A stretch of DNA of 64,000 nucleotides from NCBI RefSeq assembly GCF_044324875.1, contig NZ_CP172185.1, one strand, 5' to 3'. How positions within the stretch are numbered: the stretch's first letter is position 1; each line of letters begins with the position of its first letter. The notes beneath the pieces are model-generated. The model did no database searches. It was not told the DNA's origin and saw only the letters and a list, made by a program, of their open reading frames with translations. The stretch is from Escherichia coli. Its GTDB lineage: Bacteria > Pseudomonadota > Gammaproteobacteria > Enterobacterales > Enterobacteriaceae. Position numbers and translations under genes: made by a program. Of this stretch, positions 24,636-25,483 are shown one piece after another.

Positions 24636-24716
24636 TATTGTCTCTGATTTCTGTTGTCGTCAACAGGCAGCGTGCTATCATCGAATGGTGTTCTATCCTA
24701 CTCCGTGAGGTTTACC

Positions 24717-24974
24717 ATGCGTACAACCCAACAATTCAGTATTACATTAACTAACGAGATGGCTGACATGGTGCGCTCCCGTGTGGCTTCCGGTGCCTAT
24801 GCTTCAGAAAGCGAGGTCATTCGTGAAGGGCTTCGCGCACTGAATGAGCGCGATAAAGCAATCGAAGCGTGGTTAACGCATTCAGTCGCCCCCTCTCTTG
24901 ATTCTATCCGCGAAAACCCAAACAACGGACGCTCCATTTCACAGGTTCGCGCCGCGATTAGATCCGGGAAGTAG
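24717..24974 (+). CDS. ParD-family antitoxin (ribbon-helix-helix)
   Basis: ORF 24654..24974 with internal ATG at 24717 (MRTTQQFSITLTNEMADMVRSRVASGAYASESEVIREGLRALNERD...); directly upstream of a ParE-like ORF. Confidence 0.7.
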   Translation: MRTTQQFSITLTNEMADMVRSRVASGAYASESEVIREGLRALNERDKAIEAWLTHSVAPSLDSIRENPNNGRSISQVRAAIRSGK

Positions 24975-24979
24975 TCTGC

Positions 24980-25279
24980 ATGACATTTGAAGTCATCATT
25001 ACCCCCGAGGCCGAACAGCAGATAATAAACCTGCACAGATATATAACGGAGAAAGCAGGAGGCGTCATTGCTGACAATTATGCCAATGCGCTTCTTGATT
25101 ATCTTGATGGGTTTTCTGCATTTCCGCATCGGGGCAATAAACGCGATGATATTCGCCAGGGGATGCGGGTAACTCATTTCCGCCACAGAACGATTATTGC
25201 TTTTGCCGTTGATGACAATAAAGTCTTTATCGCAGGTGTTTATCATGGCGGACAAAGTTATGAAACCGATTTCTTATAA
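24980..25279 (+). CDS. ParE/RelE-family toxin
   Basis: ORF track, 99 aa; 5 bp after the antitoxin; typical ParE size and charge pattern. Confidence 0.7.
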   Translation: MTFEVIITPEAEQQIINLHRYITEKAGGVIADNYANALLDYLDGFSAFPHRGNKRDDIRQGMRVTHFRHRTIIAFAVDDNKVFIAGVYHGGQSYETDFL

Positions 25280-25361
25280 ACTTGTCCCCACAGAATTCCG
25301 GTGTTAGAATAAAATGTCCGCCCGCTCTCTTGCTGGCGGATTCGTAAGCCATATAAATCAA

Positions 25362-25397
25362 AGCTCCCGACTCATGTTTGTGTCGGGAGCTTTTTTC
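25362..25397 (+). terminator. Intrinsic terminator after the ParD/ParE pair
   Basis: AGCTCCCGAC-loop-GTCGGGAGCT hairpin followed by TTTTTT, about 85 bp after the ParE stop. Confidence 0.6.
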
Positions 25398-25483
25398 AAC
25401 GATTTATCCCCAACCGCAAATAGAATACATCACCAGCGCCTCCGCCATTGCAATTCCTGCCGTTGTGAATGCTTCAGGCCAGG

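Follow-up and report, generated by a model that had tools for sequence, protein, structure and literature searches.

A parDE toxin-antitoxin operon carried as a moron cassette in the nin region of an Escherichia coli lambdoid prophage

Introduction

Solved ParD-ParE toxin-antitoxin (TA) complexes of chromosomal systems include those of Mesorhizobium opportunistum (5CEG, 6X0A), Caulobacter crescentus (ParD1-ParE1, 3KXE), Mycobacterium tuberculosis (ParDE1, 8C24), Vibrio cholerae (ParD2-ParE2, 7R5A) and Pseudomonas aeruginosa (ParDE, 6XRW). Here, we describe a two-gene locus, called parDE, that lies in a lambdoid prophage of Escherichia coli on a 64,000-nucleotide stretch of contig NZ_CP172185.1 (assembly GCF_044324875.1), the whole of which was analyzed and is referred to as the window. 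Like the solved systems, it encodes a ribbon-helix-helix (RHH) ParD upstream of a ParE of about 100 amino acids (aa), with a toxin that matches theirs in fold, at template modeling (TM) scores of 0.78-0.84, and by profile, at E-values of 2e-12 to 7e-4. In contrast to them, the module is found in lambdoid prophages and not on plasmids or in the core chromosome, and its toxin, 12-23% identical to theirs, belongs to a distinct Enterobacterales subfamily with its own invariant motif, GNKRDDIR..RVTHFRHRT.

ParE-type toxins have been described from prophages as well. The PaaR2-PaaA2-ParE2 system of cryptic lambdoid prophages in E. coli O157:H7 (5CW7; PMC8630535) also contains a ParE-clade toxin (TM 0.79), however, it is tripartite, its regulator PaaR2 being a protein of its own and its small antitoxin lacking a DNA-binding domain (PMC8630535). 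The window module has two genes only, its antitoxin itself bears the RHH domain, and the profile match between the toxins is weak (E 1e-5). ParESO-CopASO of the Shewanella prophage CP4So (PMC8706911) and PfiT-PfiA of Pf4 (9W3A) are further prophage systems with ParE-fold toxins for which a role in retention has likewise been proposed, but both their antitoxin families and phage types differ from those of the window module. With respect to position, the closest counterparts are relBE-hokD in the K-12 prophage Qin and hokD in O157 prophages, which occupy the same nin neighborhood just upstream of ydfU (DUF968) and Q and share a flank with the window that ends at 24626. These genes encode unrelated toxins (a RelE RNase and a Hok membrane peptide) and point in the same direction as the nin genes, to which parDE is antisense. 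Finally, phage morons carry their own promoter and terminator, are inserted on the opposite strand and are present in some and absent from other related phages (PMC3594210). All of these properties are found in the parDE cassette, which is a typical phage moron and does not differ from others in kind.

Results

Identification of the antitoxin and toxin

The locus very probably represents a canonical type II ParD/ParE TA operon packaged as a 777-bp moron cassette. The operon is autonomous, conserved and under selection, and has the following main features:

24627..25403, no strand assigned: parDE cassette (moron) comprising a promoter, two genes and 3' hairpins, delimited by homology breaks on both sides
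24717..24974, plus strand: parD, antitoxin gene, 85 aa, N-terminal RHH, identical to RefSeq WP_029400504.1
24980..25279, plus strand: parE, toxin gene, 99 aa, identical to RefSeq WP_029400502.1

The antitoxin open reading frame (ORF) runs from the ATG at 24717 to a stop codon ending at 24974 and is preceded by the Shine-Dalgarno (SD) sequence GAGG at 24707-24710. The toxin ORF begins with the ATG at 24980 and ends at 25279, leaving a gap of 5 nt (24975-24979) in a bicistronic order with the antitoxin first and the toxin second. This order is kept in the Salmonella, Yersinia and Enterobacter copies, with the 5-nt gap in Salmonella and Yersinia and a 4-nt overlap in Enterobacter.

Profile searches identify the first protein as an antitoxin of the ParD family. 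It scores 55.8 bits against NCBIfam TIGR02606 (curated cut-off 46.2) and reaches E-values of 7e-8 against Pfam ParD_antitoxin (PF03693) and 3.5e-55 against PHROG 6494; its RefSeq counterpart is named 'ParD family antitoxin'. The top seven matches in a PDB search are all ParD chains crystallized with ParE toxins, and the N-terminus aligns to ParD1 and ParD2. The N-terminal sequence MRTTQQFSITL is kept across all lineages, the RHH half being nearly invariant. A preliminary description of this DNA, based on the letters and their ORFs, had pointed out an 85-aa RHH antitoxin-like ORF, and the protein is indeed a ParD-family member with an N-terminal RHH domain. In an AlphaFold 2 (AF2) model of a linker-fused ParD-ParE, ParD residues 50-83 have predicted local distance difference test (pLDDT) values of 87-93, which would fit folding upon binding to ParE. 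A longer antitoxin of 106 aa starting from the TTG at 24654 was rejected: this start lies inside the promoter and the conserved N-terminus is MRTTQQ. The record of phage ArgO145 (NC_049918.1, 4382-4588) annotates a 68-aa antitoxin from an internal Met, with a conserved ATG located 51 nt upstream that would give 85 aa. Since the 68-aa form is devoid of the RHH β-strand, this is likely a misannotated start site.

The second protein was described beforehand as a ParE/RelE-like ORF of 99 aa that follows after 5 bp, and this assignment can now be narrowed to ParE. The toxin matches Pfam ParE_toxin (PF05016) over residues 5-94 of 99 (9.2e-10) and PHROG 5232 'toxin' (2.2e-40), and its identical RefSeq protein is named 'RelE/ParE family toxin'. 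Because PF05016 spans RelE as well as ParE, the clade was tested in three ways. A toxin profile built from 94 homologues (library of 1963 representatives at E <= 1e-3) matches 6x0a (2e-12), 8c24, 5ceg, 7ycs, 3kxe, 6xrw, 5cw7 and 7r5a in the PDB, all of them members of the ParE clade or close ParE relatives. The sole exception is a weak and partial match to 7etr (RelE/StbE; E 1e-4, query residues 4-63), and canonical RelE, YoeB, HigB and YafQ sequences gave no match in this search. The AF2 model of the toxin (pLDDT 90.9, predicted TM score 0.81) has the topology β1-α1-α2-β2-β3-β4 and contains the long α1-α2 hairpin typical of ParE. With this model as the query, the top 23 Foldseek chains are all from the ParE clade (TM 0.72-0.84), compared with TM scores of 0.45-0.64 for RelE, YoeB and YafQ. 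The toxin therefore belongs to the ParE clade and not to the RelE/YoeB RNase clade. Its close subfamily is limited to Escherichia, Salmonella, Yersinia and Enterobacter and contains the invariant stretch GN.RDD.R.G.RVT.FRHRT. Profile searches thus place both proteins in the ParD and ParE families rather than in unrelated ones.

Compared with the ArgO145 and Salmonella copies, the dN/dS ratio (nonsynonymous to synonymous divergence) of parD and parE is 0.12-0.19, which indicates that both genes are under purifying selection.

Promoter and leader

Three features were located upstream of parD:

24654..24681, plus strand: candidate parDE promoter from a consensus scan, with a -35-like TTGTCG at 24654-24659, TG at 24673-24674 and the -10 TATCAT at 24676-24681
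24684..24702, plus strand: conserved 19-nt block AATgGTGTTCTATCCTACT from a five-lineage alignment, predicted +1/leader and candidate ParD operator
24634..24663, minus strand: isrK promoter remnant from a scan, with -35 TTGACG at 24663-24658 and -10-like AATATT at 24639-24634

The candidate promoter is sigma-70-like, with a 16-nt spacer between TTGTCG and TATCAT, and falls inside the interval 24640-24716 for which a promoter had been anticipated. Its conservation was assessed in an alignment of five lineages, specifically, the window, the Stx2a phage ArgO145, Salmonella, Yersinia and Enterobacter. All of them conserve the extended -10 element TGcTATCAT (24673-24681), with GTGCTA...T invariant in 5/5. 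Directly downstream, the 19-nt block is nearly invariant and reads AAT[A/G]GTGTTC[T/A]ATCCTACT. In comparisons of E. coli with Yersinia or Enterobacter, synonymous sites of the adjacent parD and parE genes have reached saturation (proportion of synonymous differences, pS, of 0.74-0.90), and the block is therefore under selection. Based on this conservation together with the near-invariant RHH half of ParD, we propose 24684-24702 as the best candidate for a ParD operator. When 24580-24730 was searched for repeats that could form an operator dyad, a junction palindrome (24629-24644) and short repeats at chance level were all that emerged. The plus-strand 'terminator' reported by the scan at 24627-24646 was discarded, being weak (3 GC pairs) and found at the chance rate (1 found compared with 1.3 expected).

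A third invariant motif, GTCGTCAA, is located at 24656-24663. Its invariance is explained by the other strand, where it forms the -35 element (TTGACG) of a promoter arranged back-to-back with that of parDE. An Rfam isrK match starts 7 bp past the cassette edge, behind TTGACG-18-TATATT, in ArgO145 (NC_049918.1, 4168-4241), Salmonella (prophage, 7572-7648) and Yersinia (prophage, 7567-7643). As isrK lies just beyond the cassette edge in these loci, the window copy carries the orphan half of an isrK promoter. This remnant, with its degraded -10 element, faces the 92-aa gene, the ydfU-like gene, rusA and Q in the window. The window's own isrK (RF01394) and C4 antisense RNA (RF01695) are located at 32704-32892, upstream of a Rha-family anti-repressor gene, in what resembles an immI unit.

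The 3' region

Downstream of parE, two hairpins were found:

25361..25396, no strand assigned: intrinsic terminator hairpin with T6 for parDE, probably bidirectional, based on folding and a compensatory change
25316..25341, plus strand: extra GC-rich hairpin following the extended -10-like sequence TGTTAGAAT (25302-25310), based on a scan and folding

The terminator consists of an 11-bp GC-rich stem (25361-25371 and 25382-25392) with a 10-nt loop and a T6 tract at 25391-25396, and begins 82 nt beyond parE. It dominates the fold of 25275-25410, which has an energy of -44.7 kcal/mol compared with -25.5 +/- 3.3 for shuffled sequences (z -5.8; 0/200 shuffles as good). A strong hairpin with a T-tract had been noted beforehand, and a simple terminator scan overlooked it because of its loop limit of 8 nt. 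The stem shows a compensatory change, GCTCCC/GGGAGC in the window and GATCCC/GGGATC in ArgO145. On the minus strand, the hairpin is followed by UUUGAUUUAU and is located 6 nt past the stop codon of a conserved 27-aa minus-strand ORF. These two observations make it probable that 25361-25396 is a shared, bidirectional terminator rather than one of parDE alone. The earlier proposal that the pair has its own terminator thus stands as far as a genuine hairpin is concerned, but not in its exclusivity.

The 27-aa ORF (25404-25487, minus strand) is hydrophobic and unannotated, has a strong SD sequence (GGAGG), and its start overlaps the stop codon of the upstream gene in an ATGA. ArgO145, PhiR49_2 and vB_EcoS-666R9 all preserve its frame, with homology stopping exactly at its stop codon. 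It probably encodes a real small membrane protein.

The extra hairpin at 25316-25341 keeps its stem in ArgO145 and is lacking in the cassettes of Salmonella, Yersinia and Enterobacter. Together with an AU-rich single-stranded linker and the terminator, the segment 25302-25341 has a layout like that of an Hfq-type small RNA (sRNA) of about 80 nt. Its divergence from ArgO145 is about 12%, near synonymous divergence, its -35 element is not kept and the other genera are without the segment. An sRNA in the parDE 3' region is therefore only a lead, with sequence conservation no better than neutral. Rfam scans, one permissive over 24000-26000 and one at gathering threshold over the whole window, revealed no RNA family within the cassette or next to it; the best permissive match in 24000-26000 was a PyrG leader (E 0.86), a terminator look-alike. 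The idea of 25316-25341 as a second, minus-strand terminator was dropped, its T-tract being lost in ArgO145.

Cassette limits, mobility and distribution

The parDE setting is the P-to-Q (nin) interval of a lambdoid prophage integrated at ompW, with the pair pointing against it. To the left lie the 92-aa gene (24303-24581), a DUF968/YdfU-like gene, rusA and Q, all on the minus strand; to the right, a minus-strand ORF (25484-25891) is followed by Ea22-like genes and replication genes. With minus-strand neighbors on both sides, the pair is transcribed against the nin genes, as had been reported.

Relative to hokD-carrying prophages, homology breaks on the left at 24626/24627, and homology to ArgO145 and the Salmonella prophage begins at 24634. 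On the right, homology to phages PhiR49_2 and vB_EcoS-666R9 begins at 25404/25408. These breaks on both sides define the 777-bp cassette at 24627-25403, with which the extent of 24640-25400 given in the preliminary description nearly coincides.

The intact cassette was identified in 327 of 5426 complete E. coli genomes (about 6%), always on the chromosome and in many E. coli that produce Shiga toxin (STEC), and 326 of these 327 share the same nin-side junction. The window allele (>= 99% identity) is found in 15 genomes, the common allele being about 94% identical. Elsewhere, the cassette is located in the early-left region of ArgO145 and two Stx2a phages, in the nin region in Salmonella, in the early-left region near sieB in Yersinia and in a non-phage island in Enterobacter. 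It is antisense to its neighbors in every phage context, and in ArgO145, Salmonella and Yersinia, isrK, the C4 antisense RNA and an anti-repressor gene are found directly to its left on the opposite strand. The cassette thus moves between positions in lambdoid prophages. At other loci, parD is preceded by a tRNA-like sequence; this was considered as an att remnant and turned out to be C4 antisense RNA and isrK.

Two of these relatives show additional features. The Salmonella prophage contains two isrK/C4 units, one by Q (4170-4350) and one by parDE (7462-7648), with hok/sok (6439-6739) between them, so that a type I and a type II TA system lie side by side in its nin region. In Yersinia prophages, parDE is followed on the same strand, past a hairpin and a promoter-like region, by a 133-aa gene (8425-8826; PHROG 16082), the product of which has a weak N-terminal likeness to the superinfection-exclusion protein Cor (E 7e-4).

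Other occupants of the flanking positions

On the left side, the position is elsewhere occupied by hokD in O157:H7 FRIK804 and SCU-113 and by rem-hokD-relE-relB in K-12 Qin. On the right side, phage vB_EcoS-666R9 carries, in the place that parDE takes in the window, an opposite-strand BstA abortive-infection gene that adjoins the same 27-aa ORF and is convergent with it. Annotated just as 'DNA-binding protein', this BstA (ON470614.1, 1183-1956) is recognized by PADLOC (3e-21) and PHROG 6287 (3e-89). The presence of hokD or relBE-hokD on the left and bstA on the right marks these as accessory positions for toxin or defense genes, which raises, without establishing it, the possibility that parDE takes part in phage exclusion.

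State of the prophage

The window prophage carries at least two insertions, one of which is an IS100. A 1954-bp IS21-family insertion sequence element (elsewhere annotated as IS100 family) is located at 25913-27866 and encodes istA (25999-27021) and istB (27018-27800). It has an apparent 5-bp target duplication and lies inside the minus-strand hypothetical gene adjoining the cassette, the product of which has 171 aa in NZ_CP033635 and is shortened to a 135-aa ORF in the window. This IS100-family insertion junction was found in 0 of the 5426 complete E. coli genomes. Compared with NZ_CP033635, a second insertion of about 1.3 kb at 35937-37246 breaks the region of an exonuclease (recE-like) gene and contains an ALIL pseudoknot (Rfam RF01497) at 36272-36388. 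Two tRNA genes, which the matching RefSeq record lists as Arg and Ile, are located at 20981-21131 on the minus strand downstream of Q.

Discussion

A mechanism for parDE can be outlined from the ParDE family, namely from the systems of RK2, Caulobacter, Vibrio, Pseudomonas and Mycobacterium (PMC10776004, PMC6368863, PMC11925232). In a lysogen, parDE would be constitutively transcribed from its own promoter, independent of the repressed phage operons. ParD dimers would bind the operator via the RHH domain, with 24684-24702 as the best candidate site, leading to autorepression of the operon, and the C-terminal half of ParD would wrap ParE and neutralize it. Should ParD synthesis halt, labile ParD would be degraded and free ParE would poison DNA gyrase, resulting in a replication stop, the SOS response and growth arrest. 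We infer gyrase as the target from membership in the ParE clade. Loss or silencing of the cassette would be penalized, so that the prophage or locus would be retained, and infection by a phage that shuts off host transcription might be aborted. The preliminary description had likewise mentioned stabilization and phage defense, and we infer both as potential roles of parDE.

Several points weigh against this reading. Identity of the toxin to any characterized ParE is only 12-23%, and since a motif of its own, RVTHFRHRT, is invariant in the subfamily, the target could differ. The proposed operator block shows neither a clean dyad nor any clean symmetry of repeats. No model in PADLOC-DB 2.0 matches the toxin, and the antitoxin gave only a chance-level match to LmuB (E 0.025). 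Our literature search found no paper on this parDE module or on phage defense by ParDE.

The last two points bear equally on the possible, if doubtful, alternative that the main role of parDE is anti-phage defense by abortive infection or superinfection exclusion, where an incoming phage would stop host transcription or degrade ParD, ParE would be freed and the infected cell arrested. The cassette does sit in accessory-gene positions, with BstA in vB_EcoS-666R9 and hokD or relBE-hokD beside the left-flank 92-aa gene, and the Yersinia copy is located near sieB. Its independent promoter, antisense to the phage operons, would presumably allow expression in the lysogen. However, neither protein has a PADLOC model, the literature searched contains no ParDE defense phenotype, and the argument is one of guilt by association that is compatible with an addiction role as well. 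We regard as unlikely the more specific proposal that the cassette is an interchangeable occupant of toxin/defense positions acting as a phage-exclusion or abortive-infection device, with its consistently antisense position inside early operons linking the release of ParE to resident-prophage transcription. Antisense placement is also central to the improbable view of parDE as a regulator of the phage life cycle, either because N-antiterminated readthrough from pR, antisense to parDE, would on induction shut the operon off and free ParE, or because ParD would be a Mnt-like RHH regulator of the neighboring anti-repressor operon. In all of its phage contexts the cassette runs antisense to early operons, and the promoters of parD and of isrK-C4-anti-repressor stand back-to-back, with overlapping -35 elements, in ArgO145, Salmonella and Yersinia. 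This layout resembles P22 immI, where mnt is arranged against arc-ant. Prophage-linked ParE-fold toxins do exist, for example PfiT (9w3a, among the fold matches) and ParESO/CopASO (PMC8706911). The window cassette, however, is located about 8 kb from isrK/C4 and so would function without that neighbor, and the conserved block is found upstream of the isrK -35 element, not over the isrK promoter.

The pair could also be imagined as a hybrid module in which a ParD-type antitoxin accompanies a toxin that, like RelE, is a ribosome-dependent endonuclease acting on mRNA and not a gyrase poison. Both PF05016 and the RefSeq name span RelE and ParE, and the subfamily-invariant residues H66, R68, H69, R70 and H89 are of kinds seen in RNase active sites. 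This explanation is very improbable, as the PDB profile matches are ParE-clade members or relatives, the lone RelE-labelled 7etr match being weak and partial, and as the fold search ranks 23 ParE-clade chains above the RNases for a model with the ParE-type α1-α2 hairpin. Damage to the prophage, through the IS100-family insertion 516 bp away and the insertion of about 1.3 kb at 35937-37246, could make the pair look like a leftover of a defective prophage, in decay and without function. We find this scarcely credible: the two ORFs are intact, other genomes encode identical proteins, dN/dS is 0.12-0.19, promoter and terminator are conserved, and 327 genomes contain full-length copies. A canonical ParD/ParE operon in moron form thus stays our preferred explanation.

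As a discovery, the locus carries little weight. The kind of module is already known, RefSeq and PHROGs 6494 and 5232 name both proteins, and the architecture is textbook. Its comparative value is modest and consists in the exact limits of a mobile TA cassette that is present in about 6% of complete E. coli genomes at one nin junction, in a neighborhood that other phages use for hok, relBE and bstA. If the cassette does act as a phage-exclusion device, it would fill a role that has yet to be established for ParDE modules. What remains of interest is the mobility of the cassette and the fact that neighboring positions are shared with other toxin and defense genes, which makes it a convenient natural test of prophage retention versus phage exclusion by ParDE.

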